Shown here: positions 1 to 16,329 of the stretch, one piece after another
How the letters are laid out: the number at the start of each line of letters is the position of its first letter
Numbering within the stretch: the first letter of the stretch is position 1
Assembly: GCA_965202915.1 (NCBI GenBank)
Contig: OZ241847.1
Span: 2,194,242 to 2,258,241, forward strand
From: Gammaproteobacteria bacterium
GTDB lineage: Bacteria > Pseudomonadota > Gammaproteobacteria > Eutrophobiales > Eutrophobiaceae
Direction of reading: 5' to 3'
DNA: 64,000 bases
Translations under genes and position numbers: made by a program
Notes under the pieces: model-generated
Told to the model about the DNA's origin: nothing
The model's input: only the letters and a program-made list of their open reading frames with translations
Databases searched by the model: none

Positions 1-947
1 GCTGACGACAAGCCTTTTGCCAGGGTCATGGTATCGGGCTGAAAGCCAAACATGGTGGCACCAAAATCCTTGCCCGTTCGGCCAAACGCACAAATAACCT
101 CATCGTCAAGAAACAGGATATTATTATCCCGCAAAAGTCGTTGAACGCGTGGAAAGTAATCCCTGGGAGGCACTATTACGCCACCCGCGCCATTGATTGG
201 TTCAGCAATAAACGCAGCGATTGTCTCCGCTCCTTCGGTGTCGATTAATTCCTCAAGTTGATTGATCAGACGATCACAAAAAGCACTTTCCGACTCGCCA
301 TTTAAACCATTTCTATAGTAGTGAGGAGCATCTATGCGAAGTATGCCCAGAGCGTCGAATGGGAGATTAAAATGAGCATGATTTGCGGCCAGCCCGGTCA
401 GCGAAGCGGCGGCGACGGTCAATCCATGATAAGCATTATGTCGTGAAATAATTTTTCTTTTCTCAGGCGTACCCAGTATATGATTATAGTAACGCACAAT
501 TTTAACAAGTGAATCATTGGCATCGCTTCCTGAGTTGCCAAAAAATACCTTCGCCCCGCTGATATTCACCATTTCACTCAGTTTGTCAGCTAAATCAATG
601 CCCTCTTGATGTGTTTTCCCGCCAAATAAATGACTATAAGACAGGCGTTCCAGTTGCCCGGAGATGGCCTCTACCAGTTCCTCATTCCCATAGCCCAATG
701 AGGCGCACCATAATCCGGCCAGACCTTCTATGTACTTTTTCCCCTTATCGTCATATACATATATGCCCTTACCCTTAGAAAACTTTATTTGCTCCGGTGC
801 GCATAAATTAGTGCTTGGATATAAAACACTGCTCATTATATTGCTTTCCTCATATGAACAAAACCAATCGCGACGTTCAGACCAGCTTTCCGGTTTATTT
901 ATCTGTATTAAATTATAGTCATTTAATTCTTTATAAACCATCGACAT
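1..947 (-). CDS. Class-III PLP-dependent aminotransferase (omega-aminotransferase type); C-terminus lies outside the window
   Basis: The minus-strand frame is open from the window edge to an ATG at 947. It is absent from the ORF track because its stop is outside the window. My translation starts MSMVYKELNDYNLIQINKPESW. It contains GLWCASLGYGNEELVEAI, FFGNSGSDANDS, NAYHGLT, FIAEPINGAGGVIVPP, DEVICAFGRTG and TLAKGLSS. Confidence 0.8.
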   Translation of the reverse strand, partial: MSMVYKELNDYNLIQINKPESWSERRDWFCSYEESNIMSSVLYPSTNLCAPEQIKFSKGKGIYVYDDKGKKYIEGLAGLWCASLGYGNEELVEAISGQLERLSYSHLFGGKTHQEGIDLADKLSEMVNISGAKVFFGNSGSDANDSLVKIVRYYNHILGTPEKRKIISRHNAYHGLTVAAASLTGLAANHAHFNLPFDALGILRIDAPHYYRNGLNGESESAFCDRLINQLEELIDTEGAETIAAFIAEPINGAGGVIVPPRDYFPRVQRLLRDNNILFLDDEVICAFGRTGKDFGATMFGFQPDTMTLAKGLSS

Positions 948-1076
948 ATTTTCACTTAATCTGTGAATATATCTCACTGATGGCGTTCGCAATGTTTATC
1001 AGGTGGCTTGTTTAGCCTTAAAGCAGGCACAAACCCTTAGCCCACACAACCGCGCGACAGCCTTTATTCCGGGAGA

Positions 1077-1124
1077 AACATTGGCTGAACGCAACATTGG
1101 CTGAACGCAACATTGGCTCACGCC
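1077..1124. repeat. 16-bp direct tandem repeat, about 3 copies (aacattggctgaacgc x2, then the degenerate aacattggctcacgcc)
   Basis: Read directly from lines 1021-1081. It lies in the divergent intergenic region between the aminotransferase start (947) and the GT-C/TPR gene start (1260). Confidence 0.9.
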
Positions 1125-1259
1125 GGCATTTGCCACGCCACCCCCTATGCCTGGCGGCATACATACCGTTGACGCATCACCATGGGGTCATTAAAATATT
1201 CCCGTGTCGCACTACGGACTGGAATCTTCCCTCACACTTAATAATGAGAATCATCAAAA

Positions 1260-3146
1260 GTGAGTAGGCAATCAAATTTCAATGCCAGAAAACGCGGCAA
1301 CAGGAACCGACGCCGGCAAGCCAAATCGCAACCGGTTTCGCCAACAAGCTCAAAGCCATCAGCGACAATATCAGCAAGGGAAAGTATCCATATTACCCCG
1401 GCGCCGCACGGGCCGGAGTCACCCGTCTCCGCCGCGGCACCGGAAGCCGCCATCGCAACCGTATTCGCGCTGCCGGCACTATGCCTGTTAATCACCCTCA
1501 GTTACCTGCCCGCAACCTGGGCGGGGTTGGTGTGGGACGACGTCGTACTGACGATGGCCCAACCGTTGCAACATCTGTCCGGCCTATGGGATATCTGGTT
1601 CGCGCCCCGTTCCCTTTCCCAGTTTGAGGGACACTACTGGCCGCTTCTCTATACGTCTTTCTGGCTGGAGAATCGATTGTGGGGCGTCACCCCGGTCGGC
1701 TATCATATTGTCAACCTTGTACTACATGGCTTGGTCACAGTACTGCTATGGCGCCTGTTACTAAGGCTGGCCGTTCCCGGTGCCTGGTTTGCGGCGGCGG
1801 TGTTCGCGGTACATCCCCTGCACGTGGAGTCCGTGGCATGGATCATCGGACGCAAGGACGTGCTGGCCTCACTGTTTTATCTGGCCTGCGTGCTGAGTTA
1901 CCTGCATTTCATCGAGGCCCGGCGGCGCCGGTTTTATGCCGCGGCACTGGCACTGTTCATGGCGGGTCTGTTGTGCAAATCCATCCTGGTCACGCTGCCC
2001 GTATCGCTACTGATCTGGCACTGGTGGCAACAGGGGCGCGTGACGCCGGCCGACGTGCGCAGAGTGCTGCCGTTCCTGCTGCTGGGGCTGTGCGTCACGA
2101 TCGCCGACGTCTTGTTCTACAAGAGCAGGGATCCCACCGCCTTTGACTATTCAATCGTTGAACGGCTACTGATCGCGGCGCAGGCATTGTGGTTCTACCT
2201 GGGAAAACTGGTCTGGCCGACGCAACTGGCGGTCATTTACCCGCGCTGGGAGGTCGGCGTCGCCAACCCGCTGGCCTGGGGGTGTTTGATGGCCGCCTTC
2301 GCTGCGGTGGCGGCGCTGTGGTTCGGGCGCCACCGCATCGGTCGGGGGCCGCTGGCGGGTGCACTGTTCTTCGTGGTGACGCTGTCGCCGACGCTGGGCT
2401 TCGTGGACTATGGCTACATGCTGTACTCCTTTGTCGCCGACCGCTACCAATACTTGGCCGGGGCCGGTGTGATTGCAACACTGGCCGCAGCCGTAACCCT
2501 GGGCATGGGCAGACTGCCGGGCGCATACCGGCGCGGAGCGCAGGGCATGGCGGTGCTGCCGCTGGCCGCACTGGGCGTCATCACCTGGAACCAGGCGGGA
2601 ATCTACCGGGACAACTACACTTTTTACAGCCACGTCCTCTCTCTCAACCCGCAGGCCCGCTTCGCCCACCACAGTATCGGCCTGGAGTATCAAAAGCAGG
2701 GCCGCCACGAAGAGGCACTTGCCGCTTTTGAAACCGACTATCGTCTTGCCCCGGAGCAGCCGTCCCCACGGGTGCGCATGAGCAAGGCCCAGACCAGCAT
2801 CGGAACGTCGCTTGCGGCACTGGGCCGGATCCAGGAAGCGGAGGAGCACTTCCGGCGCGGGGTTGAGATCGCCCCGGACTTTCCGGGGGCCTACGATCAT
2901 CTGGGCGGGTTCCTGATCACGCACAAGCGTTACCGGGAGGCCCTCGAAGTTTTTCAAGCCGTCATCACCATAACGCCCGGCAATGCAAGGTTTCACGTCG
3001 GCCTGGGGGTCTCGCAGGCGGGCTTGGGACGGCTGGATGAGGCCTTGCAGAGCTACGAGCGGGCGCTGTTGATAGACCCCTTGCAGGAGCAGGCGCTAAG
3101 CAATCGCGCCAGCCTGTTGAAGTTCAGAGAGAGTGGCGGCGGATAG
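1260..3146 (+). CDS. Polytopic GT-C-fold glycosyltransferase-like protein (TMTC/PMT_2-like) with C-terminal TPR repeats; paralogue of 9789-11648
   Basis: 628-aa ORF with a GTG start. It has multiple hydrophobic segments and a first-loop LVWDD acidic motif. GHYWPLLYTSFWLE...GYHIVNLVLHG and AVHPLHVESVAWIIGRKD are also present. The C-terminal ~170 aa shows TPR-like periodicity (EALAAFE, EAEEHFRRGVEIAPDF, EALEVFQAVI, EALQSYERALLIDP). The region is GC-rich with third codon positions mostly G/C. Confidence 0.75.
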   Translation: MSRQSNFNARKRGNRNRRRQAKSQPVSPTSSKPSATISARESIHITPAPHGPESPVSAAAPEAAIATVFALPALCLLITLSYLPATWAGLVWDDVVLTMAQPLQHLSGLWDIWFAPRSLSQFEGHYWPLLYTSFWLENRLWGVTPVGYHIVNLVLHGLVTVLLWRLLLRLAVPGAWFAAAVFAVHPLHVESVAWIIGRKDVLASLFYLACVLSYLHFIEARRRRFYAAALALFMAGLLCKSILVTLPVSLLIWHWWQQGRVTPADVRRVLPFLLLGLCVTIADVLFYKSRDPTAFDYSIVERLLIAAQALWFYLGKLVWPTQLAVIYPRWEVGVANPLAWGCLMAAFAAVAALWFGRHRIGRGPLAGALFFVVTLSPTLGFVDYGYMLYSFVADRYQYLAGAGVIATLAAAVTLGMGRLPGAYRRGAQGMAVLPLAALGVITWNQAGIYRDNYTFYSHVLSLNPQARFAHHSIGLEYQKQGRHEEALAAFETDYRLAPEQPSPRVRMSKAQTSIGTSLAALGRIQEAEEHFRRGVEIAPDFPGAYDHLGGFLITHKRYREALEVFQAVITITPGNARFHVGLGVSQAGLGRLDEALQSYERALLIDPLQEQALSNRASLLKFRESGGG

Positions 3147-3391
3147 TGCTAAAGGGCTCAAGATAAATATATTCTGCGCGGCAAAGCGGGAACATCGGCC
3201 AATAACACCGAGGAAAGGCATCACACACCACAACCAGATCGTGGCCATTCACGCCGACCAAGAGCGAATGAACCGGCAGGTACTCACACCCCACCTCAAA
3301 AGACCAGTTGTCATTGAACGACATATTCAAGATTCCGATCTTACGATTCGGATGGTTTCGGTGATAATGGTGGGCAGGGGGGCAGGGTCAC

Positions 3392-3841
3392 TCATATTCT
3401 CTTTTGTGGCTTCTCCAGCATTTTTCCAAGCTGATTCAGTTTTCTGTTAAGAAGTTGCCCGTCTTTTAGCTGACATTCCCATATCCGCAATACTTTCCAT
3501 CCGTTGTTTTTAAGCGTCTTGTTTACCAGCCTGTCACGTTTCTTGTTGGCATATATTTTTTTAACCCAAAAATCTCTGTTGTTTTGGGGAACTTGGCCGT
3601 GCTTTGGGCAATCATGCCAGAAACATCCATCCATAAAGATCGCAAGCTTACTGTTTGGAAATACAATGTCTGGCTTGCCGAAAATCGGGTATCTGCGTCG
3701 CCATCCTATCACATGATTTCGCTTCAATATTTTAAGCAGTTTCCCTTCGGTTGATTTGTTTCCAGTAGAACGCACCTTACCCATAATCCATGAACGTTTT
3801 TCTTTTGAATAGACGTCAACCATTTTTCTTGACGTTGTCAA
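3392..3841 (-). CDS. vsr: Very-short-patch repair endonuclease Vsr
   Basis: 149-aa ORF containing GKPDIVFPNSKLAIFMDGCFWHDCPKHG, NRDFWVKKIYANKKRD and GWKVLRIWECQL. Its start overlaps the 3' end of the upstream ORF by 26 nt (3816-3841). Confidence 0.9.
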   Translation of the reverse strand: MTTSRKMVDVYSKEKRSWIMGKVRSTGNKSTEGKLLKILKRNHVIGWRRRYPIFGKPDIVFPNSKLAIFMDGCFWHDCPKHGQVPQNNRDFWVKKIYANKKRDRLVNKTLKNNGWKVLRIWECQLKDGQLLNRKLNQLGKMLEKPQKRI

Positions 3842-5477
3842 GCCTAAACAATAAAAATGAAATTAGACTTAGAATATCAAGGCAACTATTTTCTGGAAAT
3901 AATATATTTGATGTTGTCCTAGGTTCATGGTGCGTTGGATTTCTGAATGCTTGCACCAAACCAACTGAAAGAAATTGTTGACCCCTTTGCATGTTAAGTT
4001 CTGTGTCGTCGGAAAGGTCTGAAATTTGAAGTATTGGAAGCCTGGTTATTGTTGTTCTCCCTCTCTCGTTGTGTGATTCAAAACTAAAAGATTTATGCAT
4101 CAAATCAGTAGATGAATAATTAACACCAGCCTTATCTCTAATTTCCCTTTCATAAATCACCACTCCCTCTTTTGCAGCATCCAGATATCGGGCATTTTTA
4201 TAATCTTCGTACAGTCGATCCCTGATAAGCTGATGCAAATTTCTCCAATGATAATAAGGGTAAGAAGGTATAAGTTTTTTAAACTCGACAAACAGCCGAT
4301 TTGATTCAATAGTTTCTATTTCAGGAAAATCTTCAATCAGTTTTTCAGTAATAACCTCAATACTATTCTGAATTTCCTCCGGCATAGAATTTTTCCAGTC
4401 TTCCAGACCAATATCGCCAAGGCTGTTATCAACCTCGGCTATTTTCTTTTCTTTACGCTTTCTACGCCAATCCAATTGAACGAACTGGACACATTTCTCA
4501 AGATATGTATGAAGTTTGCTAGTTTGTAAATACCCCCAGTTTAGGTTTTGTCTGTTAGTGGAAATTACGTCCTCTGAAAAATCTTCTATAAAATCCACTT
4601 CCAACCATCCCGTCATATAAGAAAAGAAATGACTGGACGTGCTATCAGAAAATTGATAAGGAGATTGCACGAGTTTCCCCCGCGAAAACAAAGAAATACC
4701 CCTTGAATCAAATCTTGGTGCAATGGGCTTTTCAGGCGTAATGATCTTTCCCTGAATCTCAGACCGGTGCTCATAATCTGATTCTATGTTTGAAAAATCC
4801 TCGGGGAAATTCCAAGAAAATTCTTCACCAAATGCGGAGAAGTGCATATCATTGGACAACATTACCGGGTCTTCATCGTTACGCCTTACGGTAACGGAAA
4901 AATCTTCATCGAAAATAAAAAACCTTGCTATGCTGTTGGCAAGAAATTTTTCCGAAAAATCAGATTCTCTATTGATGTTTGTAAGTATTATTTGAGTTCC
5001 GGATTGACCATCTTCAACAATTTTGTCAATTACTTGCGGGATCATTAAATATTTCCCTCTCGTGGAGTTCATTAAATCATCCCAATCCATCGTAAAAATA
5101 TTTCTTTTTCCCTGTTGAACAGTGTTTACGGTAATTGTCCGAACAATCCCAAAGAATGAAAGCTTGCCCAAACCCTTTTTACCGATAACCTTCCTACCTC
5201 TCGGAGTCAACTCTTCTCCATCTTCTCTGCGGTTTCTCCCAATAACAAGAAATTTCTTGTCAATATCATTAAAAGACATTCCTGTTCCATTGTCCGTTAC
5301 AATAATTTCTTTTTCATTAATATCATTCAACTGCACTTCCACTTTTGTGGCATCTGCATCATATGCGTTGGCTAGCAGCTCACTTAAAACCGGAGGAAGA
5401 GTTGAGTACATACGAACTCCAAGGTGCTCTATAACTCTTGGGTCAAACTTCATCGTCAATTGATTAGATTCCAGCAT
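3816..5477 (-). CDS. GHKL (HATPase_c_3/MORC-like) ATPase with a C-terminal TIGR02391 (Hypoth_Ymh)-like domain
   Basis: 553-aa ORF with Bergerat-fold motifs: N-box SELLANAYDA, G1 VTDNGTGM, G2 GKKGLGKLSFFG. The C-terminal ~120 aa (YLDAAKEGVVIYEREIRDKAG...DLMHKSF...QRGQQFLSVGLVQAFRNPTHHEP...LSLISFLLFRLD) matches my recollection of the TIGR02391 pattern. It includes an R-x4-H motif (RNPTHH). Confidence 0.75.
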   Translation of the reverse strand: MLESNQLTMKFDPRVIEHLGVRMYSTLPPVLSELLANAYDADATKVEVQLNDINEKEIIVTDNGTGMSFNDIDKKFLVIGRNRREDGEELTPRGRKVIGKKGLGKLSFFGIVRTITVNTVQQGKRNIFTMDWDDLMNSTRGKYLMIPQVIDKIVEDGQSGTQIILTNINRESDFSEKFLANSIARFFIFDEDFSVTVRRNDEDPVMLSNDMHFSAFGEEFSWNFPEDFSNIESDYEHRSEIQGKIITPEKPIAPRFDSRGISLFSRGKLVQSPYQFSDSTSSHFFSYMTGWLEVDFIEDFSEDVISTNRQNLNWGYLQTSKLHTYLEKCVQFVQLDWRRKRKEKKIAEVDNSLGDIGLEDWKNSMPEEIQNSIEVITEKLIEDFPEIETIESNRLFVEFKKLIPSYPYYHWRNLHQLIRDRLYEDYKNARYLDAAKEGVVIYEREIRDKAGVNYSSTDLMHKSFSFESHNERGRTTITRLPILQISDLSDDTELNMQRGQQFLSVGLVQAFRNPTHHEPRTTSNILFPENSCLDILSLISFLLFRLDNVKKNG

Positions 5478-5489
5478 AATAAAACTATC

Positions 5490-6530
5490 TCAGCCCGAGT
5501 AAAAAGATTTCGCTATTCTGTAAGCAAGTTGCGGTGGCACTGCATTGCCTATTAGCTTGGCTGCGATCATTGAACTTTCACACGCAAAAACATAGTCTTC
5601 GCTGAACGTTTGTAGTGTTGCACCTTCTCTTAGGGACAATCCTCTGTTCTCCTCGGGATGGGCAAATCGACCATTTGAAATCCCGTTAAATCTCGTTGTA
5701 ATTGTTGAAGAGGGTTTATCCCACCTCAATCTCCCATAAACATCCCGAAAAGAATTATCTTTGCCTTTGTAGGTGTTCAATTGAAGCTCGGGGTCGTCTT
5801 TCCATGCGCTCCTTGTCCCGCCGTCTTTGGGTGTTAGCTTGAGCCGTCTCAAATTTTTTTCGGATAACGATGAAACTGTATCCATGAAATTATTTTCATC
5901 CTTATAACCGGATTGCAGAACGGGAAATCCATTATGGGTCCCTATAAATTCCTTCAATACGGATTCTTTCTCCGGTTGGGGAAGATCAATCGATTTTTTT
6001 ACCCTGGAAGCAATCAAGATAAATCTCTTTCTGCTTTGCGGAACTCCATAATACTTGGCATTGATAATATCCTCGACAATCTTATATTCTTTTTCAAGTT
6101 TCCGACAAAATTTGTCAAGCCCACTTTCCGCTTTGTTTCTTTTTATTCCCGGAACATTTTCTATAATTACATAACCCGGTTTGTAGTAACAGACAAAGCG
6201 CCAAAAATGATCAAGCAGTCCTCTGGTGTTCTCCGATGATCTTTTGTTCGTATTCAGGGTGGTCCAGTGCTGGCATGGGCTGCACCCTATAAAGATCAAA
6301 GAGTCGTCATTGCGTTTAATCCCACAATTTTTTTCCAGAAAAGTTCGTGGTGTGTCTTCTATATCTTTTAGAAAAAATTTTGTCCCCGGATGATTTGCCT
6401 CATATGTCTCTTTACAATCCTCATCCACATCTATCCCGGCAACAACCTTTACTCCGGCCATCTTTAACCCTTGGGACATGCCGCCGGCACCGCAAAAAAA
6501 ATCAACCGCTCTTAAGGATTTTTTTCTCAT
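5490..6530 (-). CDS. dcm: DNA (cytosine-5)-methyltransferase
   Basis: 346-aa ORF with the canonical m5C-MTase motifs. These are I DFFCGAGGMSQG, IV GCSPCQHW, VI IIENVPG, VIII QSRKRFILIA and X GNAVPPQLA. Its start overlaps the stop of the upstream ORF (ATGA, 6527-6530). Confidence 0.95.
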   Translation of the reverse strand: MRKKSLRAVDFFCGAGGMSQGLKMAGVKVVAGIDVDEDCKETYEANHPGTKFFLKDIEDTPRTFLEKNCGIKRNDDSLIFIGCSPCQHWTTLNTNKRSSENTRGLLDHFWRFVCYYKPGYVIIENVPGIKRNKAESGLDKFCRKLEKEYKIVEDIINAKYYGVPQSRKRFILIASRVKKSIDLPQPEKESVLKEFIGTHNGFPVLQSGYKDENNFMDTVSSLSEKNLRRLKLTPKDGGTRSAWKDDPELQLNTYKGKDNSFRDVYGRLRWDKPSSTITTRFNGISNGRFAHPEENRGLSLREGATLQTFSEDYVFACESSMIAAKLIGNAVPPQLAYRIAKSFYSG

Positions 6531-8872
6531 TCGCCACCGCCCAAACTGGCTATTAATGTTACTATATGTGCCGCAACCGCGGACGAGGCAGCACGCACGA
6601 CAGAATCTTCGTCATATTCCTCCCGGCCATCGGAATTATCTTCGGAGTCACTGACAAGTCTCTTATACATTGCTAATGTGAGAATGCCCACCCCCACCCT
6701 GAAGCGGTGCCTGATGATCTCTCTCTTACCCTCATCTGATTCTTTGGAAATTAAGTACAAGAGATATTTATTGGCTTTGTTCACATATATGGTTAGCGTT
6801 TCTCCTCTGGACACATGACCGCCCGACTCTTCATTGTAGTTATGTTCATCCCAATATTCTTGCTCCACCCACTCAATATTCGGAAATTCCCGAGCCGGTC
6901 TCTCTTGATTGTTTGTGTCTGTTTCATCCCCGGGCGGGTTTCTTTGAGTTTCTTCCGCACTGGCAATTTTGATCATTACGTCAAAAGTCAGAGGATCTGT
7001 TCTTTCCGGGTTTGAGTCATCAAAGCCAAACTGAACGGCAATTTCATCTCCTACTTTTGCCCCCGCGGGAGTTATGACTTTTATTCGGAATTTTCCATTA
7101 CGCAGAGAACCCGAATGTGGCAATATATCAGGTGATGGGTGAATAAACTCCCCTCGGTTGGCATCTCTTATCAAATAATCATTTTGAGCGTCTGTTCTAC
7201 ATTCAATTCGTCTGTAAGAATTTATGGGAACACTCTTAACATTGCCCTCCTCCAAGTGCGTGGGAGTTAAATATGTGGGGAACAATTTCCCTTCATATTG
7301 ATCCTCACCTCCGGATGTTGCAATCTGACTGTCAACAATACTTCCAACATCAAATAGTTCTTGAAGATCCGGATTATCTTTAACAAGATTGGAAAGAAAT
7401 TCTTTATCGGTCTGCTCTTCTATTTGCTCGCTAATACGACGGTTTTTTATTTCTCTTGCATATTCCCTAAGTTCTCCGCTCCCGGCCAAGGCATCTATAA
7501 TAATTTTCTTTAGTTCTCTCGTGAGCCCTATGTCCGCCATTCTTTCCCTGTCCGATTTAAACACGGCGGCTCGCGCCGTATTATCCATGGCATTACAATC
7601 TATTTGAACAATTAAATGGTTTCTCAAATCATCCAGTCGCGCCTTCCGCAACAGACTGGCTCTGTCCGCAGATTGGGACTGACCGTTGATCGTGTAGAAC
7701 ATTCTGTATGGCTGTTTGCGCAAATAATCCTTCATTTTCTTCAACCCAAAATAAGATATTCGGATAGTCCCCAAATCCGAATTTTCAGAATTTTCAATTA
7801 CGTTTTCCAAGTCAACTTCGCTTTCCTCACTTCTTTCATCATCGGATTTGAGCACTATATTCATACCGGAAAAAGTTCTCGGTGCAATACCCTCCGCTCT
7901 AAGACCGCTCCTTGTGGGTTGAGCATCAAAATCATAAAGACGAACAGGCAAGGCACAATTTATAAGGTTGGTCGTAAGCGCATCATATAGTCCTATATCA
8001 ACCGCACGGGCACGAGGCCCTATATCGTATTCATATAACTTCACAATGCTGCCACCATTGATGACGACACCGATATCCTCTCTGCCAAAAGCCTTGATTT
8101 CATCGGTTTCAAAACAGGCAATTTCTCCGTCGGGACAAAAATACTCAACCACTGGCAAATCCTCTCCTTCTCGAACTCCTCTTACCCTTATCAAAGTCCA
8201 TCCCCATAGACCATCCGAACCGTAAGTGGTTCTTTTGGACAGAATAAACTTATACATCCCCGCCCTGATATCTGCTCGGGTACAAAAAGGTATGGATCCG
8301 GTGCTACCCATATTAAATCGACCTTGGACAAACGGAATGCCTTCCTTATTCTTTTCTCCAAGAGATAAAAAAGTTTTTCCAAAATCTGTATGATTTTGCC
8401 CCTCACCAAAATCAACTATCGTATAGTTTGGACAAATATCATTTCTCCTTCCTGTTCTCTTAATACCAATCAAAACACTTTTTTCAGCCAGATCAGTCCT
8501 TTGATTCGGGCTTAACAAAGCCAACCTGCCTTCTTGAACTTTGGGGAAAAAGTGTTTGACAGCCTCGCTCATATCTTGGGGAGCTGATTCACCATAAAAA
8601 TCTATTTGCTCTTCCTTTGCCCTGCGCATAAGGATTGCGTCAATGGAATTAATGATTAACTCTGCCAACGCACCGACTGGTTGGCTCGTTTGGACGCTCA
8701 CCCTGTCCCAATTTTTATCCGCGCCGCCGTAAGGCTTCCAATTTTCATCAGCGCTAAATTCAGGCTGGCTTTCCATGAACCGATTAACGTCGTCGGCTGA
8801 CAAAGCACCGAGAAACTTATTCGCTATTAACTTTGAAAGTGGGCTGTTGAAAAATTTTCTCGAATCATTCAT
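6527..8872 (-). CDS. Large uncharacterised protein with a divergent N-terminal GHKL/Bergerat ATPase-like region
   Basis: 781-aa ORF and the first gene of the AT-rich operon. Candidate motifs are N-box LAELIINSIDA, G1 IVDFGEGQ and G2 QGRFNMGSTGS (about aa 68-200). I recognise no motifs in the remaining ~550 aa, which end in an acidic tail (SDSEDNSDGREEYDED). Confidence 0.6.
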   Translation of the reverse strand: MNDSRKFFNSPLSKLIANKFLGALSADDVNRFMESQPEFSADENWKPYGGADKNWDRVSVQTSQPVGALAELIINSIDAILMRRAKEEQIDFYGESAPQDMSEAVKHFFPKVQEGRLALLSPNQRTDLAEKSVLIGIKRTGRRNDICPNYTIVDFGEGQNHTDFGKTFLSLGEKNKEGIPFVQGRFNMGSTGSIPFCTRADIRAGMYKFILSKRTTYGSDGLWGWTLIRVRGVREGEDLPVVEYFCPDGEIACFETDEIKAFGREDIGVVINGGSIVKLYEYDIGPRARAVDIGLYDALTTNLINCALPVRLYDFDAQPTRSGLRAEGIAPRTFSGMNIVLKSDDERSEESEVDLENVIENSENSDLGTIRISYFGLKKMKDYLRKQPYRMFYTINGQSQSADRASLLRKARLDDLRNHLIVQIDCNAMDNTARAAVFKSDRERMADIGLTRELKKIIIDALAGSGELREYAREIKNRRISEQIEEQTDKEFLSNLVKDNPDLQELFDVGSIVDSQIATSGGEDQYEGKLFPTYLTPTHLEEGNVKSVPINSYRRIECRTDAQNDYLIRDANRGEFIHPSPDILPHSGSLRNGKFRIKVITPAGAKVGDEIAVQFGFDDSNPERTDPLTFDVMIKIASAEETQRNPPGDETDTNNQERPAREFPNIEWVEQEYWDEHNYNEESGGHVSRGETLTIYVNKANKYLLYLISKESDEGKREIIRHRFRVGVGILTLAMYKRLVSDSEDNSDGREEYDEDSVVRAASSAVAAHIVTLIASLGGGE

Positions 8873-8924
8873 TTATGAAAATTCACCTAGGTTTTGGTAT
8901 TTAATCAGTACATATCCATAACCG

Positions 8925-9300
8925 TTAAAAATCATTCCCGGAACCAAATGGCCACCCACTTGCGGAATAGGCCCGGATGTCATCATCGCCGGCATATTTG
9001 AACCAAAAAACCGCCGCCGGCACAACCGAACATTTGCCAAGCCGGCAGTTTTCCACCACCACCTTGAGCATGGCGTATTCGCCGTTGACTTGGCAGGCGA
9101 AAGCCAGCATATCGAATGCTACTTGATACGCCAAATGATGTCGAGTTTAATATATCCAGTTTGACCATTACGCATGTCGGTGATGTCGAGATCTTCACGC
9201 AGTGCTTTATCGCCATTGGTTAGGACCATTTTGTAACTGTATTTGTCGCCGCCCGCTAGAATCGCCGGACATACGGACTCCCCGAACCAAGAATGATAAC
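8925..9300 (-). pseudogene. hemB: Decayed C-terminal relic of porphobilinogen synthase (hemB-like)
   Basis: Minus-strand fragments lie in different frames, broken by stops. Compared with E. coli HemB from memory: ...ALREDLDIT..DMRNGQTGYIKLDIIWRIK resembles [29 protein letters not shown]. ...LAFACQVNGEYAMLKVVVEN...FWFKYAGDDDIRAYSA resembles [20 protein letters not shown]...GSIKRAGADLIFSYFA. Confidence 0.55.
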
Positions 9301-9788
9301 ATTAGCTCCCTCTACAATCCAGGTATTTCCCAACGCCTGTCCTTCCAGAACACCTATCGACCAAACCATCGGTTACTGACAGAACAACATCTACGGACGT
9401 GGCGACAGCGGTAATTGGGTTATCATGGAATCATCCGATTCACACCATCTCCAGAATATACGGGCGGCAGCATCGGACACTTCCTTGGGTATGTGTGCTA
9501 CCCGCACCTCCAATTAACACGGCCGAGTTGAGAATGTGAACCAAGTATTTCGTTGGTAATTACCCCACATCCTTCGACTTATCAGGTAATGAGACAAGAC
9601 TCGGCAAGGTTACGGGACTTCCCCGGTCACCGTCTGTGCACAATCTTATAATGCTTTTCTGCGAAAATTATGAGGATTGTGTAAAATCCTCTCTTGTATA
9701 GGATTAGGATACCCTCTTGCCACACTTCAGACTGAAATCTGCCTTCTCCTCAAGAAAGGAGTGGCGCAAGGTGAACAGATAATCGGAT

Positions 9789-11648
9789 ATGGCGGCCCGA
9801 AAAAACCGAAACAAGGCCCGGCGCAGGCAAATGAAGCTGCAAACCACCGCCAGGCGCCCCGGCACGGTGCGTAGCCGGACCGGCCCCGTACCCATCAAAT
9901 CGTCGCCGGGCGGGTTGCAATCGCTTTTTTCCGGGCTCAAGCGGAGCGTACTTCACGGGGACCCGATCCCACCCGCACTCGCGGCCACGGCGCTGTGGCT
10001 GCTGATACTCATCAGTTACCTGCCCGCGACCTGGGCCGGTTTCGTGTGGGACGACTTCGCGTTCACGGAGGCCGAACAGGTACTGCGCCCATCCGGTCTT
10101 TGGGATATCTGGTTCAAGCCGCACTCGCTGCAGAATGAAGGCCATTACTGGCCGCTCCTCTATACGACCTTCTGGCTGGAGCACAAGTTGTGGGGGCTGG
10201 ACCCGACCGGTTATCATATCGTCAACCTGCTGCTGCACGGGTTGACCACGCTGTTGTTGTGGCGCCTGCTGCTGCGGCTGGCCGTGCCGGGCGCCTGGTT
10301 CGCGGCGGCGGTGTTCGCCGTGCACCCCCTGCACGTGGAGTCGGTGGCATGGGTTATCGGACGCAAGGACGTGCTGGCGGGGCTGTTCTCCGTGGCCTGC
10401 GTGCTGAGCTATCTGCGTTTCGTGGAAGCTGGTCGCCGCGCACGCTATACGCACTACTTTCGGGCACTGGCGCTGTTCGTGGCGGGACTGTTGAGCAAAT
10501 CCATTGTCGTCACCCTGCCGGTGTCGCTGTTGATCTGGCACTGGTGGAAGCAGGGTCGCGTAGCCGTGACCGACGCACTGAGGACGCTGCCGTTCCTGCT
10601 GCTGGGGCTCGGCATCACGATCATCGACTGGTGGTACTACAAGGACCGGGAAGAGATTGTCCTGGAGGACTACTCGTTGATCGAGCAGACGCTGAACGCG
10701 GCGCACGCGCTGTGGTTCTACGTTGGCAAACTGGTCTGGCCGGCGGAACTGGCAGTCATCTACCCGCGCTGGGAAATCAACGTCAGCGAGCCACTGGCCT
10801 GGGCGTATCTGGTCACCGCCGTCGCGGTGGTGTGGCTGCTGTGGTTCTACCGCGACCGCATTGGCCGGGGGCCGCTGGCGGGGGTGCTGTTCTTCGTGGT
10901 GACGCTATCACCGACCCTGGGGTTCGTCGAGTACGGTTTCATGCAGTTCTCGCTGGTCGCCGACCGCTATCAGTACCTGGCCGGGATCGGAGTGACGGCG
11001 GGCCTCGTGGCCGCCGCGGCCCGCGTTGCAGGCCGGCTGTCGGGTACGCCGGCGAGGGGCGTACAGGCCGCGGCGGTGCTGCTGCTGGTCGTGCTGGGAA
11101 CCATCAGTTGGAACCAGGCGGGCATCTACCGCGACAACTTCACGTTCTACCAGCATATCATCGCTCTCAACCCGCAGGCCAGGAACGCCTGGTACAACCT
11201 TGGCAGAGAGTATTCCATGCAGGGCCGCACGCAGGATGCGCTGGCCGCGTATCTCACCGCCGGCGAGCAGCGCCCCGACCACGTCTGGGCGCATATCGGC
11301 GCCGGGCAGATGGCCGCGGAACTGGGAAGGCTCGCCGAGGCGGAGATGTACCTGCAACGCGCGCTTGCGGTTGACCCGAGTTTCCCGGAAGCCCTCAACA
11401 ATATGGGAGCGCTGCGGCTCAGACAAAAACGCTACAGCGAGGCGCTCGAACTCTTTGAGACCCTGATTGAGATGCAGCCCGAGTACGCCAAGGTTTATTC
11501 TGGCATAGGCGTGGCCCTGGCCGGACTCAGGCGGTTTGAAGAGGCGTTGCGGAGTTTTGACCGCGCGCTTGAACTGGACCCGTCACTGGAAGAGGCGCGG
11601 GTCAACCGCGAGCACGTATTGCGGAACTCCAAAAGCGAGAGCAGGTAA
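9789..11648 (+). CDS. Polytopic GT-C-fold glycosyltransferase-like protein (TMTC/PMT_2-like) with C-terminal TPR repeats; paralogue of 1260-3146
   Basis: 619-aa ORF that is colinear with the 628-aa protein. Shared blocks include ISYLPATWAGFVWDD, GHYWPLLYTTFWLE, LLWRLLLRLAVPGAWFAAAVFAVHPLHVESVAW, RIGRGPLAG.LFFVVTLSPTLGFV and WNQAGIYRDN. The TPR tail is more divergent. Its stop overlaps the next start (TAATG at 11646-11650). Confidence 0.8.
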   Translation: MAARKNRNKARRRQMKLQTTARRPGTVRSRTGPVPIKSSPGGLQSLFSGLKRSVLHGDPIPPALAATALWLLILISYLPATWAGFVWDDFAFTEAEQVLRPSGLWDIWFKPHSLQNEGHYWPLLYTTFWLEHKLWGLDPTGYHIVNLLLHGLTTLLLWRLLLRLAVPGAWFAAAVFAVHPLHVESVAWVIGRKDVLAGLFSVACVLSYLRFVEAGRRARYTHYFRALALFVAGLLSKSIVVTLPVSLLIWHWWKQGRVAVTDALRTLPFLLLGLGITIIDWWYYKDREEIVLEDYSLIEQTLNAAHALWFYVGKLVWPAELAVIYPRWEINVSEPLAWAYLVTAVAVVWLLWFYRDRIGRGPLAGVLFFVVTLSPTLGFVEYGFMQFSLVADRYQYLAGIGVTAGLVAAAARVAGRLSGTPARGVQAAAVLLLVVLGTISWNQAGIYRDNFTFYQHIIALNPQARNAWYNLGREYSMQGRTQDALAAYLTAGEQRPDHVWAHIGAGQMAAELGRLAEAEMYLQRALAVDPSFPEALNNMGALRLRQKRYSEALELFETLIEMQPEYAKVYSGIGVALAGLRRFEEALRSFDRALELDPSLEEARVNREHVLRNSKSESR

Positions 11649-13414
11649 TGGCGAAACGGAAAAACCCCCGCCCCGCCACTCGCCGGCGCCGACAACCTGG
11701 GGCAGCGGCGCCGACAACGGCAACGATGCCCTGGCGGTGGCGCGCGGGCGACGCCTTATTTGCCGCCGACCGCCCGCGGCTCGCCGGCGACGGCGAACAC
11801 TGGACGTATTTCTGGCCGCTGCTGGGCGCGGCCCTGCTGCTGCGCGCTGCCATCGCCCTGTGGGGTGACTTTGTGCTGCATCCGGACGAGATCATGCAAT
11901 ACCTGGAGCCGGCCCACTATGTGGCCTTCGGCAATGGCGTCCTCTACTGGGAATATCTCCACGGCGCACGCAGCTGGCTGATCCCGGGCGCGATCGCCGG
12001 CGTGCTGAAGGCGCTGGATGGCTTGGGGCTGGCGCAGCCGGCCATCTATATCGCCGTGGTGAAACTGTTGTTCTGCCTGCTGTCGCTGTCGGTGCCGTGG
12101 GCCATGTACCGCTTCACGCAAATCACGGTCAACGAGCGATCTGCTCGGCTGGCGCTGATCTTCGGCTGCTTCTGGTACGAACTGGCGGCGCTGGCGCACA
12201 AACCCTTCACCGAATTGTTCAGCACTTCCATTTTCATGGTCGTGCTCGCTCTGTCCGTGGGCAGGGAAGCGGAAAGACCCGCCAGGCTGTTTGCCATCGG
12301 CCTGCTGGCGGCACTCAGCGGTGCGGTGCGCCTGCAGTACGCACCCGTGGCGTTGCTGCTGTTGTTGCTGCGCTCGGTATCCCTGCGCAACGGCGTTGCC
12401 GGGCTGGTGTCGTTATGGGCGGGCGCCGGGCTGCTGACGCTGCTAGTGGGTATCTTCGAATGGCAGACCTGGGGGGCGCCGTTTCATTCCTACCTGAGCA
12501 ACTTCTTTATCAATCTCGCCATTGACCCCGCACGCGCCGGTGAATCAAGCCGATGGCTTCTGTTGGGGCAGTTGGCCGCGGCCAGCGGCGGCATGGCACT
12601 GATCGCCTTTGCCGCTGCGCTGCCCAGGGGGCGGCGGCATCTGCTCATCCTGGTGACGAGCGCGGTGATACTCGTCCTGCACCTGCTCCCGGAGCATCGC
12701 GAATACCGCTTCATCCACGTCCTGATCCCGTGCTGGTTGATGCTGCTGGCGGCCTGGATCGCGCGCTGGGGCGACGGATTGTCCGGCGAACGAGGCCGGA
12801 TATCCGCACTGGCGCGGCGCTGGGGCGCGGCGGCGGTGCTGGCCTTCGGCATCCCAGCCCTACTCAATGCGTTTCCCTGGCAGAGCCGGGTGTACCAGAG
12901 TTTCTCCGTGGAAAAACCGGTGTACTACTTGCGCAATCAGGACCCGATATTTGAGATCATGTCTTTCCTGGCCGCCCAGGACGACGTGCACGGAGCTCTC
13001 TACCATACCCGGGAATACAACGCATACTTCAGCACTGGCGGCTATTACTACCTGCACCACGACGTCCCTTTCTATACCGCGCAAGACACCTGGCAAACCA
13101 TCAGGGAACGGCACCCGGCGGTGCCTCAGGAATCGTTGGTTTCCCATATCGTGACCGAGGCCGACGGCCCCGCCATCCAGGGGTTCGAACGACTGCTCCG
13201 GCGTGGAAACCTGGCGCTGTGGCGGCGCCGGGACAACGACAGTGCAGTCCCCCGCTGGCGCGAGCACGTGATCAAGGTAAGCCATGCGGACCTAAACGAC
13301 CTGGTGAGCAGAACCATGCGGCGCCTGAACGCCTCTTCCATGCTCGACCTTTTCGTAGCCGATGACTTGTACTGGGTGGAGGCGCCACCGTTGTTTGAGT
13401 CGGCGGATGAATAA
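11648..13414 (+). CDS. GT-C mannosyltransferase-like membrane protein (GT22 / PIG-B-ALG9-like)
   Basis: 588-aa polytopic ORF. Its first-loop motif LHPDEIMQYLEPAHYVAFGNGVLYWEYLHGARSWLIPG matches the PDE..Q.LE.AH...FG.G.LTWE...G.RS pattern of Dol-P-Man-dependent GT22 enzymes. It is translationally coupled to the upstream gene. Confidence 0.65.
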   Translation: MAKRKNPRPATRRRRQPGAAAPTTATMPWRWRAGDALFAADRPRLAGDGEHWTYFWPLLGAALLLRAAIALWGDFVLHPDEIMQYLEPAHYVAFGNGVLYWEYLHGARSWLIPGAIAGVLKALDGLGLAQPAIYIAVVKLLFCLLSLSVPWAMYRFTQITVNERSARLALIFGCFWYELAALAHKPFTELFSTSIFMVVLALSVGREAERPARLFAIGLLAALSGAVRLQYAPVALLLLLLRSVSLRNGVAGLVSLWAGAGLLTLLVGIFEWQTWGAPFHSYLSNFFINLAIDPARAGESSRWLLLGQLAAASGGMALIAFAAALPRGRRHLLILVTSAVILVLHLLPEHREYRFIHVLIPCWLMLLAAWIARWGDGLSGERGRISALARRWGAAAVLAFGIPALLNAFPWQSRVYQSFSVEKPVYYLRNQDPIFEIMSFLAAQDDVHGALYHTREYNAYFSTGGYYYLHHDVPFYTAQDTWQTIRERHPAVPQESLVSHIVTEADGPAIQGFERLLRRGNLALWRRRDNDSAVPRWREHVIKVSHADLNDLVSRTMRRLNASSMLDLFVADDLYWVEAPPLFESADE

Positions 13415-13654
13415 AAGTTTGTGGTCACGATCTTACACGGGCAGCCCGATGCCGATACCGTTCGCAGGTGTGGCCCACCGGGCCAGGTGGTCGGCGATGC
13501 TTTCCGACCCCATGGAGCCCCGCGCGGCCCCGGAATAGTCTTCGCAACCGCTCATTGGTTTGCCGGCGACAATATGGCACACTCTCCGGCAGTTTGATTG
13601 TAATGTTGATCCTGTCTTTTGATTTGCTTTTTCATTGCTTTAGGAGGCCCGCCC

Positions 13655-14404
13655 ATGTCCAAAAACCTAAGCGACTTTTCAACCCTGAGCCTGGACTGCT
13701 ATGGCACACTCATTGACTGGGAGACTGGCATTTGGGACGCGCTACAGCCCCTGATCCGGCGATCCGGACGAGACGACGTCGTGCGCCGCCAAGGACTCGA
13801 GGCGTTCGCCCGATTTGAAAATGCCCGCGAAATGGAGACACCGGAGCTGCCCTACCCGGAGATTTTGCAACGAACCCACGCCGACGTGGCGGCCTACCTG
13901 GGAATGACCACCTCGGTGGAACTGGACCGCGAGTTTGCCTGCTCCATCGCCCACTGGCCGGCCTTTGCCGACACCGCCGACGCGCTGCGCCGCCTGCGGA
14001 AGCACTATAAACTGGTGATCCTGTCCAACGTCGACCGGGCCGGATTCGCCGCCTCGGCGACCAAGCTCGGCGTCGCCTTTGACGCCGCCTACACAGCGGA
14101 AGATATCCGCTCCTATAAACCCGCCGCCGCCAACTTCCACTACCTGATCGAACATCTCCAGGCCGATCTCGGCGTTAAGCGCGAAGCCATCCTGCACACC
14201 GCCCAGAGCCTGTTCCACGACCACGCACCGGCCAACGCCTTCGACCTCGCCAACGTCTGGATCGACCGCCAGGGGCTGTCGCATAGCGACAACTGGGGCG
14301 CCACCGCCAGGCTCGACAAGCGCCCCGACGTGGACTTCCTGTTCCCGACCCTGGCGGCGATGGCGGACGCAGTGGAAGGGGAGGTCGAGCCGCCCCAGGG
14401 TTGA
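13655..14404 (+). CDS. HAD-superfamily hydrolase, haloacid dehalogenase type II-like
   Basis: An internal ATG of the 261-aa ORF is preceded by AGGAGG. Motifs are LSLDCYGTLIDWE (DxYGT nucleophile motif), ILSNVD, SYKP and the C-terminal DH/D region. Confidence 0.75.
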   Translation: MSKNLSDFSTLSLDCYGTLIDWETGIWDALQPLIRRSGRDDVVRRQGLEAFARFENAREMETPELPYPEILQRTHADVAAYLGMTTSVELDREFACSIAHWPAFADTADALRRLRKHYKLVILSNVDRAGFAASATKLGVAFDAAYTAEDIRSYKPAAANFHYLIEHLQADLGVKREAILHTAQSLFHDHAPANAFDLANVWIDRQGLSHSDNWGATARLDKRPDVDFLFPTLAAMADAVEGEVEPPQG

Positions 14405-14712
14405 AAGCGGTCATGCACTGTACCAGTTAAGGATATAAATCCAGTGGTGGGTCTGGTACCTGGCGTCGTTCCTGATTCCGCACTGATGGCGGGGCGGGGA
14501 GCAAGTGCACAGCAGGGGCCAGGACTGAACACTTCGGCAGTGGGTGCTGCCTGGCGTCTTGCTGGTTGTACAAACGCGCCGGTGCCACGTTGCTGGCGGT
14601 GCTGCTTCCCACCAATTGCGCCGCCGGGACATTTTTAATGAACTATGTCCACAAAAAATTCACTTGTCCGAGCGAAAGCTTTGTAGTGCCCGCCCTGGTG
14701 CGCGAGATTCAC

Positions 14713-15643
14713 TTACCCGTTCGCCATTGTGGAGACGGTCGTGTATCTGCGCGCGAGTGCCGCACGAGAGACACGGTGTTCGTCGACCAGTGGCGGGATT
14801 CCCCGATGTTGCCGTATTACTTGAGCGGTCAACTCATTTTCTGCTGCGGCCTGGGACACTACACCAGACTGCCCGGTGACCTTGTATAGGGTGATATCCT
14901 CGCGCACTTGCTCCAACAGATAGAATTCCATCCGGGCATGGTTGAAAGCGAAGCGATCTCCTGACCGGTTGTTGAACACCAGCTTGGAGAGCGCAATGTT
15001 GACGACTACCAGCGCGGCCAAAATTGTCAGTATCCAGTGATTAGACAGCCCTAGCCTGCAAACCACGGCAAACCCCTTGAGATGGGTCGGATTTCGACCC
15101 TGTGCGTAAACCAGCGTCAGCAGCAGAATCAAAAGAAAAAGCAGCACGTGTAAGGAATACACCTTCTGGATAATGGACTGCGACCAGAATAGCTTGGAAA
15201 ACCCGTAGGCGAAGCCGGCCATGTAGCCGCCGAGGCGGCCGCCCGTCAGGTGGACCGCCACCAGATATAGCACCGCGCAGGCCGCCGCGCCCAAAAGGGC
15301 GCTCAATATGTTGCCGGCCAGCGGGCGCGAAAGCAACGGCAGGTGGGCGAACGGGAAGCACAACATGCTGTACAGCGGGTAACCCGGCGGGTGCACTGGT
15401 TGGCCGTAGTGGCAAATCAGGTTGAAGATCGCTGCGTCTTCGTAGGTGACGACACGGGGCATCGTGGCCAGATATACGATAAAAAGCCCGGTAAACACGG
15501 CCAGAGGGGGGGCAGCCCTGTCCTTCGATGTTATCGCGTAATGAAAACAAGCTAACCGTAGCGGCGTTGCGCACCCTGTCTTGGGACTGGGGGCGCACCT
15601 TACCCGAACGGGTACGGTTTTTTCTTTTACTCTTTCTGCGCAT
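14713..15643 (-). pseudogene. DUF2723/TMEM260-like GT-C membrane protein, reading frame broken at a C7 homopolymer (pseudogene, phase variant or sequencing error)
   Basis: The 261-aa ORF (14713-15498) carries YEDAAIFNLICHYGQPVHPPGYPLYSML, the DUF2723 first-loop signature. Its frame stays open upstream (..KDRAAPPLAVFTG..). A basic N-terminus MRRKSKRKNRTRSGKVRPQSQ...EGQGCPP lies in another frame, starting at 15643. Removing one C from the C7 run joins the two frames. Confidence 0.6.
15506..15512. repeat. Homopolymeric G7 (C7 on the coding strand) tract at the frameshift point of the DUF2723-like gene
   Basis: Read directly from line 15481 (ccagaggggg ggcagccc). Confidence 0.9.
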
Positions 15644-15656
15644 GGTGCCTACCCAA

Positions 15657-15956
15657 CTACAGTCCCTTTTTGGCAAATACTATCACGTCTGATGCTGTAC
15701 CCGCTCGAATCGGCTCGCCTGAACGGGAGGGCGGAATGATTGTAATGTCGACTATGATGTCGCGTGTTTCATCCGGGCGGTTTTGTTGAATCTCGTCTTT
15801 TATGATTTGTATGTCCAGCCGGATCAACGGTTTATTCAGGTCAAAGATTTTCGCCAATTGGTAGCAAACGTCGCCGTCAAAGAATAAATCTTTGCGGTCT
15901 GTCTCAACCTCATATTGGGGGTTATAATGGTCTTGAGTTCGTTTTGCTTGGCACAA
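15657..15956 (-). CDS. Hypothetical protein (99 aa, TTG start), ending 13 nt upstream of the DUF2723-like gene start
   Basis: Supported only by the ORF and its operon-like spacing. I recognise no motif in it. Confidence 0.3.
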   Translation of the reverse strand: MCQAKRTQDHYNPQYEVETDRKDLFFDGDVCYQLAKIFDLNKPLIRLDIQIIKDEIQQNRPDETRDIIVDITIIPPSRSGEPIRAGTASDVIVFAKKGL

Positions 15957-16039
15957 TCGTAATATTTACTCAGTAGTGGACCAATCCACCGCTGTTTTTT
16001 CTTTGATAATACTCTGCACTTTTTTGATTGGATATAGCG

Positions 16040-16215: not shown

Positions 16216-16329
16216 ACTATCGATAACAACAAAATTTATACAATATGTGGTGGACCCCATACATAGAGTAGTAGAAATATCGCTATGTGGGAGTATATAT
16301 GCAGATAAGGCATAGGGAGTTTCCTAATA

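Follow-up and report, generated by a model that had tools for sequence, protein, structure and literature searches.

Why do membrane-bound glycosyltransferases of different families begin with the same kind of strongly basic peptide? The question is raised by a stretch of 64,000 nucleotides from the genome of a Gammaproteobacteria bacterium (assembly GCA_965202915.1, contig OZ241847.1, positions 2,194,242 to 2,258,241 of the forward strand), called the window below. In this window four genes related to glycosyltransferases of the GT-C fold class, P1 to P4, carry an N-terminal leader rich in arginine and lysine. A preliminary description of the DNA had read the four N-termini as MSRQSNFNARKRGNRNRRRQAKSQ (P1, 1260, plus strand), MAARKNRNKARRRQMKLQ (P2, 9789, plus strand), MAKRKNPRPATRRRRQPG (P3, 11648, plus strand) and MRRKSKRKNRTRSGKVRPQSQ (P4, 15643, minus strand), and all four strings are exact. 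Its claim of a leader on four GT-C proteins holds for P1, P2 and P3, which are intact carriers, and not for P4, a pseudogene whose leader open reading frame (ORF) is out of frame with its domain. The leader is shown here to be a translated, strongly basic module of about 20-25 residues, with about 9 lysines or arginines (K/R) and almost no aspartate or glutamate (D/E), that stands ahead of a normal N-terminal tail. It behaves like a polybasic, presumably cytoplasmic tail that tags enzymes of several families encoded by a mobile glycosylation island. The features of the three intact genes are the following.

1260 to 3146, plus strand: P1, a GT-C enzyme of 628 residues that starts at GTG and is TMTC-like in architecture, with TPR repeats at its C-terminus, from ORF and Pfam analysis.

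1260 to 1331, plus strand: leader of P1, residues 1-24, with the basic core ARKRGNRNRRRQAK shifted 8 residues from the N-terminus, read from the sequence.

9789 to 11648, plus strand: P2, a 619-residue paralogue of P1, from ORF, Pfam and DNA comparison.

9789 to 9842, plus strand: leader of P2, MAARKNRNKARRRQMKLQ, from the ORF translation.

11648 to 13414, plus strand: P3, a GT22 (Alg9-like) GT-C enzyme of 588 residues, from its match to PF03901 (91.6 bits).

11648 to 11701, plus strand: leader of P3, MAKRKNPRPATRRRRQPG, a predicted coil, from the ORF translation and an AlphaFold2 (AF2) model.

11810 to 11863, plus strand: first transmembrane helix (TM1) of P3, residues 55-72, from the AF2 model.

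A leader was scored when residues 2-26 hold at least 8 K/R and no D/E. Only P1 (9 K/R), P2 (10) and P3 (8) do so among 49 non-overlapping ORFs of the window, and about ten other polytopic proteins of the host encoded there have 0-5 K/R in the same residues. The basic head of P1-P3 ends 25-41 residues before TM1. The low-complexity spacer rich in Pro/Ser/Ala/Thr, announced as about 30-60 residues, is thus 25-41 residues long, and the composition fits P1 (fraction 0.62) but not the others (0.28-0.46). The P1 leader is displaced from its N-terminus. An ATG at 1282-1284 lies one base out of frame with GCC AGA AAA CGC and in frame would encode the family-typical MARKRGNRNRRRQ; the ORF now relies on the GTG at 1260, which puts the 8 residues MSRQSNFN ahead of the basic core, beginning at residue 9. 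The ancestral start of P1 has possibly lost one base (ATGGCC to ATGCC). Pfam and NCBIfam gave no match that takes in the first ~60 residues of P1, P2 or P3, no DNA repeat common to the four window genes was found beyond the paralogy of P1 and P2, and Rfam has no match in positions 1-17000 of the window.

The leader is not ordinary positive-inside bias, an objection that the preliminary description had itself raised, and which fails since other membrane proteins of the same loci lack the leader. Real gene calls from five related loci have at least 8 K/R in residues 2-26 in 12 of 13 leader-family GT-C genes and in 0 of 66 neighbours (p=2.5e-13), counts that are not fully independent because loci L003 and L004 carry the same gene pair. 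The 66 neighbours include membrane proteins of the OpuA-type permease, ion-channel, EamA, GtrA and FeoB kinds. A broader ORF pipeline, run over 83 sources (1.65 Mb) with a criterion made lenient on purpose by taking the best result over all candidate starts, found the leader in 125 of 188 ORFs of eight polytopic families against 6 of 124 other polytopic ORFs (p=5e-31). Five of the eight are GT-C families with Pfam support: TPR-GT-C (PMT_2 plus TPR), GT22, TMEM260-like, a second PMT_2 type with a DWDES motif, and some PIG-V-like proteins (Mannosyl_trans2). The remaining three, U1-U3, are unannotated polytopic families of 518-643 residues that have no Pfam match and reach hhalign probabilities of 1-22% against the GT22 profile. 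The 124 other polytopic ORFs include two families of the same clusters. PMT2a, a co-clustered PMT_2-type GT-C family with the motif CLVNLDYAALWHDE, has the leader in 1 of 22 members, and that one was judged spurious; the GT2-GtrA fusion, a presumed polyprenyl-phosphate sugar synthase, has it in 1 of 18. Inspection of the leader-like ORFs outside the defined families led us to class them as fragments of leader families, as internal starts or as spurious frames rich in Arg, and no soluble family among the ORFs of the related loci carries the leader. A profile search with the leader in tandem returned none of 402 candidates at E<=10 and is uninformative about the leader on other proteins.

The leader is translated and under selection. 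The source annotation of P2 begins at M15 (P0001, 605 residues) and so clips it. The P2 orthologue of locus L002 reads MATRKNRNKARRRQARPQP, with no Met between leader and TM1, and the leader Met is taken as the true P2 start because this orthologue has no Met at the position of M15. Leaders of P2 orthologues are MATRKNRNKARRRQ in L002 and MAPRKNRNKNLRRR in L003, and strain L085 has the very same leader. The P2 ATG at 9789 is preceded, 9 nucleotides (nt) upstream, by a TAA in frame. A leader-type start is present in 103 of 120 full-length P2 homologues and in 113 of 120 P3 homologues, with a median of 9 K/R in residues 2-26, and 83% and 87% of them, respectively, have the head M-(small residue)-[KR]-x?-[KR]. 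Eleven orthologous GT22 leaders differ at codon positions 1, 2 and 3 by 98, 113 and 279 nucleotides, a third-position excess that shows purifying selection on the translated peptide. Shine-Dalgarno-like 4-mers precede 30% of leader starts and 10% of internal control sites (3-fold), and many genes have an in-frame stop just upstream of the leader start. Note that Latescibacterota-type GT22 genes (SKRNRSQ...) start at TTG with a stop 1-2 codons upstream (L015, L023-L027, L032, L035, L038, L052, L055, L081). The many TTG starts of GT22 genes help explain why gene callers miss or truncate the leader.

The consensus head is the same in both large families, M-[A/S/T/G]-K-R-[K/R/N], and is followed by a second basic cluster that often ends in [KR][KR]Q. 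This last motif is found in 63% and 39% of the sequences of the two families against 20% and 14% after shuffling (~3-fold). Leader pairs taken across families share 4.76 of 18 positions, compared with 4.11±0.12 after shuffling within leaders, which shows an order of residues beyond composition. All six Arg codons are used; AGR codons are enriched (34% against 10%), and the GC fraction is 0.633 in the leader against 0.609 in the rest of the gene. Selection for translation initiation through an A-rich 5' end was considered as the main driver and was rejected, since the leader is not poorer in GC than the remaining gene and is depleted in D/E codons.

Within GT22 the leader is an add-on. It is confined to the subclade closest to P3: of representatives at 50% identity, 11 of 24 in the top 25 and 4 of 24 in the next 25 have it, and essentially none beyond. 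Leader-less and leader-bearing GT22 proteins are alike in TM1 hydrophobicity (2.01 vs 1.98) and in the charge of the 15 residues before TM1 (+1.0 vs +0.7), whereas the net charge of the whole tail is +1.9 vs +9.9 and TM1 begins at residue 27 vs 51. Since these homologues have the same topological needs and do without it, the leader is a supplement of 23-25 residues. Comparison of homologues shows it to be dispensable for the family's basic fold and topology, as predicted. For P3 the AF2 model (pLDDT 82.7, pTM 0.86) has residues 1-28 as coil with pLDDT ~52-55, a helix at 29-38 and TM1 at 55-72, and the leader is predicted to be intrinsically disordered. GT-C proteins have their N-terminus inside and an acidic motif in loop 1 (PMC7801869), a topology from which we infer that the leader lies on the cytoplasmic side. 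The acidic motif of this first extracytoplasmic loop is VWDD in P1 and P2 and HPDE in P3.

The sharing of the leader among families results at least in part, as far as DNA comparison can tell, from exchange of modules. The U1 gene of L015 (13276-14877) has a 38-residue leader 82% identical to TPR-GT-C leaders of related genomes, with 89% DNA identity over 113 nt. Its match to L025 (11722 onward) runs at 85% DNA identity from -299 to +113 and then stops. The orthologous U1 gene of L014 (7435-8991) has instead a leader of the GT22 type, and is 90% identical in DNA from -143 to +32 to the GT22 gene of the same locus (9896 onward). These two matches show that 5' ends, including upstream sequence, recombined between non-homologous GT-C genes with the leader retained. 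The preliminary description had separated the leader from shared descent of the catalytic domains, and this is borne out: the leader is absent from distant GT22 relatives and from co-clustered PMT2a, and is swapped by recombination. A general homogenisation of leaders within genomes was rejected (4.76 identical positions within vs 4.62 between genomes, permutation p=0.13); only individual swaps are documented. Note also that the TPR-GT-C gene downstream of U1 in L015 (15025) retains a partial duplicate of the leader. A conserved element of ~110 nt is found upstream of leader-type GT-C genes of Latescibacterota and Rhodothermaceae (L014 7290-7420 and 9750-9880; GT22 genes of L048, L028, L029 and L022). 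In it GCCTCC...GAGGC forms a terminator-like hairpin just ahead of GTTTGTTTTTTAT. The element, which has no Rfam match and shows too little covariation for a verdict, may serve as an attenuator or as a terminator/promoter cassette common to these genes.

To which enzymes is the leader attached? The statement that the window carriers come from three unrelated GT-C families was too strong: they share a single fold class, GT-C, P1 is a paralogue of P2, and P4 is a pseudogene. The paralogy of P1 and P2 is evident from their DNA, 71-78% identical from TM1 onward with no similarity in leader and spacer, and from 58% BLASTP identity (P0056). P1 is 72% identical to the first TPR-GT-C protein of the L002 cluster. 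Both P1 and P2 match TPR_1, TPR_2 and related Pfam families (E 1e-21 to 1e-27) and have a VWDD motif after TM1. PMT_2 is weak in P1 (23.4 bits, below the cut-off of 26.1) and gives no match in P2, and many homologues of the two bear a precomputed PF13231 annotation. TMTCs are marked by a DUF1736 loop that joins TM7 to TM8 (PMC7801869), and Pfam at E<=0.01 did not report this domain for P1 or P2. Their architecture is therefore best called TMTC-like, membership of the TMTC family not being supported by the DUF1736 test. P3 matches PF03901 (Glyco_transf_22) over residues 62-392 with 91.6 bits (cut-off 23.8). Its best Foldseek matches in the PDB are ALG12 (9s6t) and ALG9 (9s6s), which reach TM-scores of 0.58-0.69; OST/STT3, ArnT and AftD come next. 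In its HPDE motif H78, D80 and E81 are invariant among 30 homologues, and TM1 of GT22 has a conserved Arg, R66, also invariant. Mannose transfer from a polyprenyl-phosphate donor is a candidate activity of P3, suggested by genomic context only. GT2-GtrA fusion genes adjoin GT22 genes in 26 genomes; tblastn found no GT2-GtrA homologue in the window. The P3 ATG overlaps the P2 stop by one base (TAATG, 11646-11650), which suggests that the TPR-GT-C/GT22 pair is translationally coupled. In L002, L003 and L004 the called gene end and the next start of this pair share coordinate 10001.

By family assignment the GT-C carriers would use polyprenyl-phosphate sugars and act on the periplasmic side. They are found together, and with a GT2-GtrA donor synthase, in a glycosylation gene cluster that is horizontally mobile. 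The intact cluster of L002, a Nitrospirales metagenome-assembled genome (MAG), codes for two TPR-GT-C proteins, GT22, an autotransporter with PKD/He_PIG domains, a TMEM260-like protein, a leaderless PMT_2 protein, GT2-GtrA and an ion channel. An Acidobacteriota-type locus has GT2-GtrA, then two GT22/TPR-GT-C pairs, with transposases on the flanks; in a further locus the GT22/TPR-GT-C pair lies between IS66 fragments. Seven tandem GT22 paralogues are found in L060 (Nitrospirales MAG OY843588, 1120-16190), and repeated GT22/TPR-GT-C pairs beside transposases in L084/L076; both arrays are signs of rapid paralogue expansion. The L002 autotransporter (11967-14759, minus strand), with its He_PIG and PKD (Ig-like) domains, is encoded within this intact cluster. 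In eukaryotes Ig-like domains are mannosylated by TMTC and TMEM260 enzymes, and by analogy this autotransporter is a possible acceptor substrate. The genome scan gave 78 loci, nearly all in MAGs, and leader-positive genes fall under at least 8 phylum-level labels: Latescibacterota, Nitrospirales, Gammaproteobacteria, Acidobacteriota, Spirochaetia, Binatia, Gemmatimonadota and Rhodothermaceae. Record titles suggest sponge or coral symbionts (Ca. Porifericomitaceae, Ca. Poriferihabitaceae, Porisulfidus, sponge/coral MAG series), and Porifericomitaceae are named in a sponge microbiome study (PMC12625764). The link to this habitat, drawn from titles, may partly reflect database content.

For the role of the leader we tentatively favour, at somewhat less than an even chance, a shared cytoplasmic tag that would bind a common anionic target or partner. 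The polybasic head would remain in the cytoplasm on a flexible linker of 25-40 residues and would bind its target by electrostatics, this target being either the anionic inner-leaflet surface (phosphatidylglycerol, cardiolipin or polyprenyl phosphate) or a shared acidic partner. The tag would co-localise, stabilise or co-regulate the enzyme set, and reinforcement of the N-in orientation would be a side effect only. Such a tag is preferred to a purely topogenic role because leaderless PMT2a and distant GT22 proteins have the same topological needs, because the head is distal to TM1 and because the distribution across families is tag-like. Several points weigh against it. Clustering of all locus ORFs found no conserved partner gene in the ±10 kb flanks except GT2-GtrA, giving otherwise lineage-specific synteny and a spurious antisense ORF family. 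The near-equal similarity of leaders within and between genomes (4.76 vs 4.62, p=0.13) gives no sign of co-evolution with a genome-specific partner. For U1-U3, three of the eight leader families, neither Pfam nor hhalign gave clear support for GT-C membership, and the sampling covers cluster neighbourhoods. So many positive charges, finally, would also strengthen N-in insertion, a role in biogenesis.

This last point is the substance of the explanation that survives best beside the tag, a topogenic or targeting signal, which we consider somewhat unlikely. An exaggerated positive-inside N-tail would block translocation of the long tail and fix TM1 as N-in, and/or would aid co-translational targeting of a marginally hydrophobic signal anchor via SRP (signal recognition particle). 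By family assignment all carriers are polytopic, their N-in TM1 leading into a catalytic loop in the periplasm (PMC7801869), and a positively charged N domain characterises signal sequences (PMC8230904). The invariant R66 in TM1 of GT22 fits the same explanation. A 2003 JBC study by Peterson and colleagues is said to have found that basic residues can promote SRP binding, which would favour it too. Yet leader-less GT22 proteins equal the carriers in TM1 hydrophobicity and near-TM charge with a net tail charge of +1.9, and co-clustered PMT2a has the same topology without the leader. The basic cluster, moreover, is separated from TM1 by the whole linker, at a distance of 25-40 residues, and other polytopic proteins of the same loci lack it.

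A bolder form of the tag, in which the leader would be the N-terminal recognition tag of a dedicated system, is quite unlikely. It would be recognised by a factor that sorts, assembles or regulates a eukaryote-like GT-C set (ALG9/12-, TMTC-, TMEM260- and PIG-V-like), and tag and island would have spread horizontally among distant sponge and coral symbionts, remodelling the cell surface that the host sees.

A low probability is given to an arginine-rich nucleic-acid-binding peptide. Through it rRNA, SRP RNA, mRNA or the nucleoid would anchor the enzyme or its nascent chain, and the ribosome-nascent chain complex could, for instance, be brought to the membrane in advance. The leader motifs RQERRQAARNDAKAQ, RRRRQ and KRKNR resemble the arginine-rich RNA-binding motifs of lambda N and HIV Rev, [KR][KR]Q is ~3-fold enriched over shuffles, and portability across phyla fits a universal anionic target. 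Against it, Rfam found no RNA element beside these genes (window 1-17000), and conservation between lineages is low except for charge and head. Just as improbable is a passenger on a mobile 5' cassette, where recombination would move promoter, 5' untranslated region and start region, and the peptide would be merely tolerated. Shared DNA does reach upstream of the start in both swaps (-143 to +32 in L014; -299 to +113 in L015/L025), and Latescibacterota-type loci have the ~110-nt upstream element with its terminator-like hairpin. Charge and head motif are nevertheless kept across phyla with no remaining DNA similarity, the window leaders share no DNA repeat, the third-codon excess shows selection on the peptide, and D/E is depleted though GAR codons are equally purine-rich. 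That the starts are miscalled and translation truly begins downstream of the leader, an objection foreseen in the preliminary description, can be set aside as very improbable: the P2 annotation at M15 (P0001, 605 residues), the lack of a canonical Shine-Dalgarno sequence before ATG 9789 and a Shine-Dalgarno-like 4-mer upstream of only 30% of leader starts are outweighed by the conservation of the leader, in frame, across hundreds of homologues, by the lack of any other Met ahead of TM1 in orthologues, by variation concentrated at third codon positions (98/113/279), by Shine-Dalgarno-like motifs 3-fold above the internal control and by in-frame stops close upstream in many genes.

The leader can be compared with known systems. 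Full-text literature searches on relevant topics found no description of such a leader. Flanks following von Heijne's positive-inside rule are likewise K/R-rich cytoplasmic segments before an N-in TM1, but consist of a few charges beside the helix and occur on most membrane proteins, whereas the leader brings ~+8 net charge in ~23 extra residues, 25-40 residues from TM1, on certain GT-C families only. Bitopic envelope proteins of E. coli also have polybasic cytoplasmic tails, as in FtsN, whose tail binds FtsA through basic residues that mediate a specific cytoplasmic interaction, and in the N-tail of PBP1b. These are disordered basic N-tails ahead of the membrane anchor of a periplasm-acting protein, as the leader is, but each is limited to one family, while the leader is common to at least 5 GT-C families and exchanged between them. 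LPXTG, PEP-CTERM and GlyGly-CTERM are C-terminal tags with a TM helix, processed by sortase, exosortase or rhombosortase. They share with the leader a short terminal module, a low-complexity linker, presence on several families per genome, unrelated or paralogous, and a patchy phylogeny; the leader differs in being N-terminal, cytoplasmic and purely polybasic, and we know of no enzyme that processes it. Glycosyltransferases of the eukaryotic endoplasmic reticulum (ER) and Golgi have basic N-terminal cytoplasmic tails as well, with di-arginine ER retrieval and [RK]X[RK] ER-export motifs read by COPI/COPII. The carriers belong to families with eukaryotic ER members that use dolichyl-phosphate-mannose (ALG9/12-like, TMTC-like, TMEM260-like, PIG-V-like), but COPI/COPII coats are absent from bacteria and, to our knowledge, eukaryotic TMTC proteins have short non-basic N-tails. 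Signal peptides of twin-arginine translocation (Tat) resemble the leader in consecutive arginines near the N-terminus. A Tat signal was rejected: the S/T-R-R-x-F-L-K motif is missing, RRRQAKSQP, RRRQMKLQT and RRRRQPGAA are followed by a polar spacer of 25-40 residues instead of a hydrophobic region, and the carriers are polytopic.

The GT-C genes lie in patches of 62-65% GC within a window that otherwise resembles a gammaproteobacterial chromosome of ~50% GC. The remaining features of the region are these.

3392 to 8872, minus strand: low-GC island (39-43%) between P1 and P2, from ORFs and Pfam.

14533 to 14886, plus strand: fragment of the leaderless PMT_2-type GT-C family PMT2a, 122 residues at 46% identity, from tblastn.

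14872 to 15504, minus strand: TMEM260-like remnant corresponding to residues 59-247 and 423-497 of a 792-residue orthologue, from PF11028 and tblastn.

15506 to 15512, minus strand: C7 homopolymer, site of the frame change from leader to TMEM260-like domain, read from the sequence.

15581 to 15643, minus strand: P4 leader MRRKSKRKNRTRSGKVRPQSQ, ancestral N-terminus of the TMEM260-like gene, out of frame with the domain, from the ORF and its match to the leader of the L002 orthologue.

P4 is, by these comparisons, a frameshifted and internally deleted TMEM260-like pseudogene. Its leader matches that of the intact TMEM260-like orthologue in L002, MGRKNKRKNRRQ. The homology of the domain, beginning at 15504 in tblastn, is in a different frame from the leader ORF; the ORF 14713-15498 matches PF11028 (TMEM260-like) with 63.6 bits (cut-off 24.2), and residues 248-422 and 498-792 of the 792-residue intact orthologue are missing. 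The GT-C cluster of the window is thus eroded, with a TMEM260 pseudogene, a PMT2a fragment and no GT2-GtrA found by tblastn. An independent assembly, strain L085, is 99.08% identical over window positions 1648-14448, where the match ends, and the P4 region, lying beyond this end, appears to be strain-specific debris. Positions 14449-16300 comprise the TMEM260-like pseudogene, the PMT_2-type fragment and non-coding debris. After its HAD hydrolase gene L085 has nadB, rpoE, rseA, rseB and degP-like genes in place of this region.

The island between P1 and P2 codes for Vsr, a GHKL ATPase (HATPase_c_3 plus Hypoth_Ymh domain), a C5 DNA methylase (Dcm) and a 781-residue protein with no Pfam match. 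It looks like a methylase-associated defence or modification module. The two TPR-GT-C genes of L002 are adjacent; strain L085, 99% identical, also has the island. A 16-nt tandem repeat, AACATTGGCTGAACGC, is present in ~2.5 copies at 1077-1133, ~130 nt upstream of P1. Further away in the window the trio dnaB, alr and radA (45785-49726) is also found in L003 (2096-6388), directly beside the GT-C pair and a manC-like gene. This shared trio suggests that the organisms are related or that the insertion neighbourhood is conserved.

Gene callers clip or miss the leader, as in P2 at M15 and at the many TTG starts, and it is therefore under-represented in databases. Were the tag specific in function, such enzymes could be found by it as a plain mark in the sequence, even in families that have no library model; three unannotated polytopic families were picked up by the leader alone. 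Eukaryotic members of the carrier families build N-glycan and GPI (glycosylphosphatidylinositol) precursors or O-mannosylate proteins. Given these families and their concentration in host-associated MAGs of many phyla, the surface glycans of symbionts that the host encounters may be determined by this cluster. If the tag has a specific function, it would offer a handle on how bacteria organise periplasm-facing glycosyltransferases that depend on lipid carriers.

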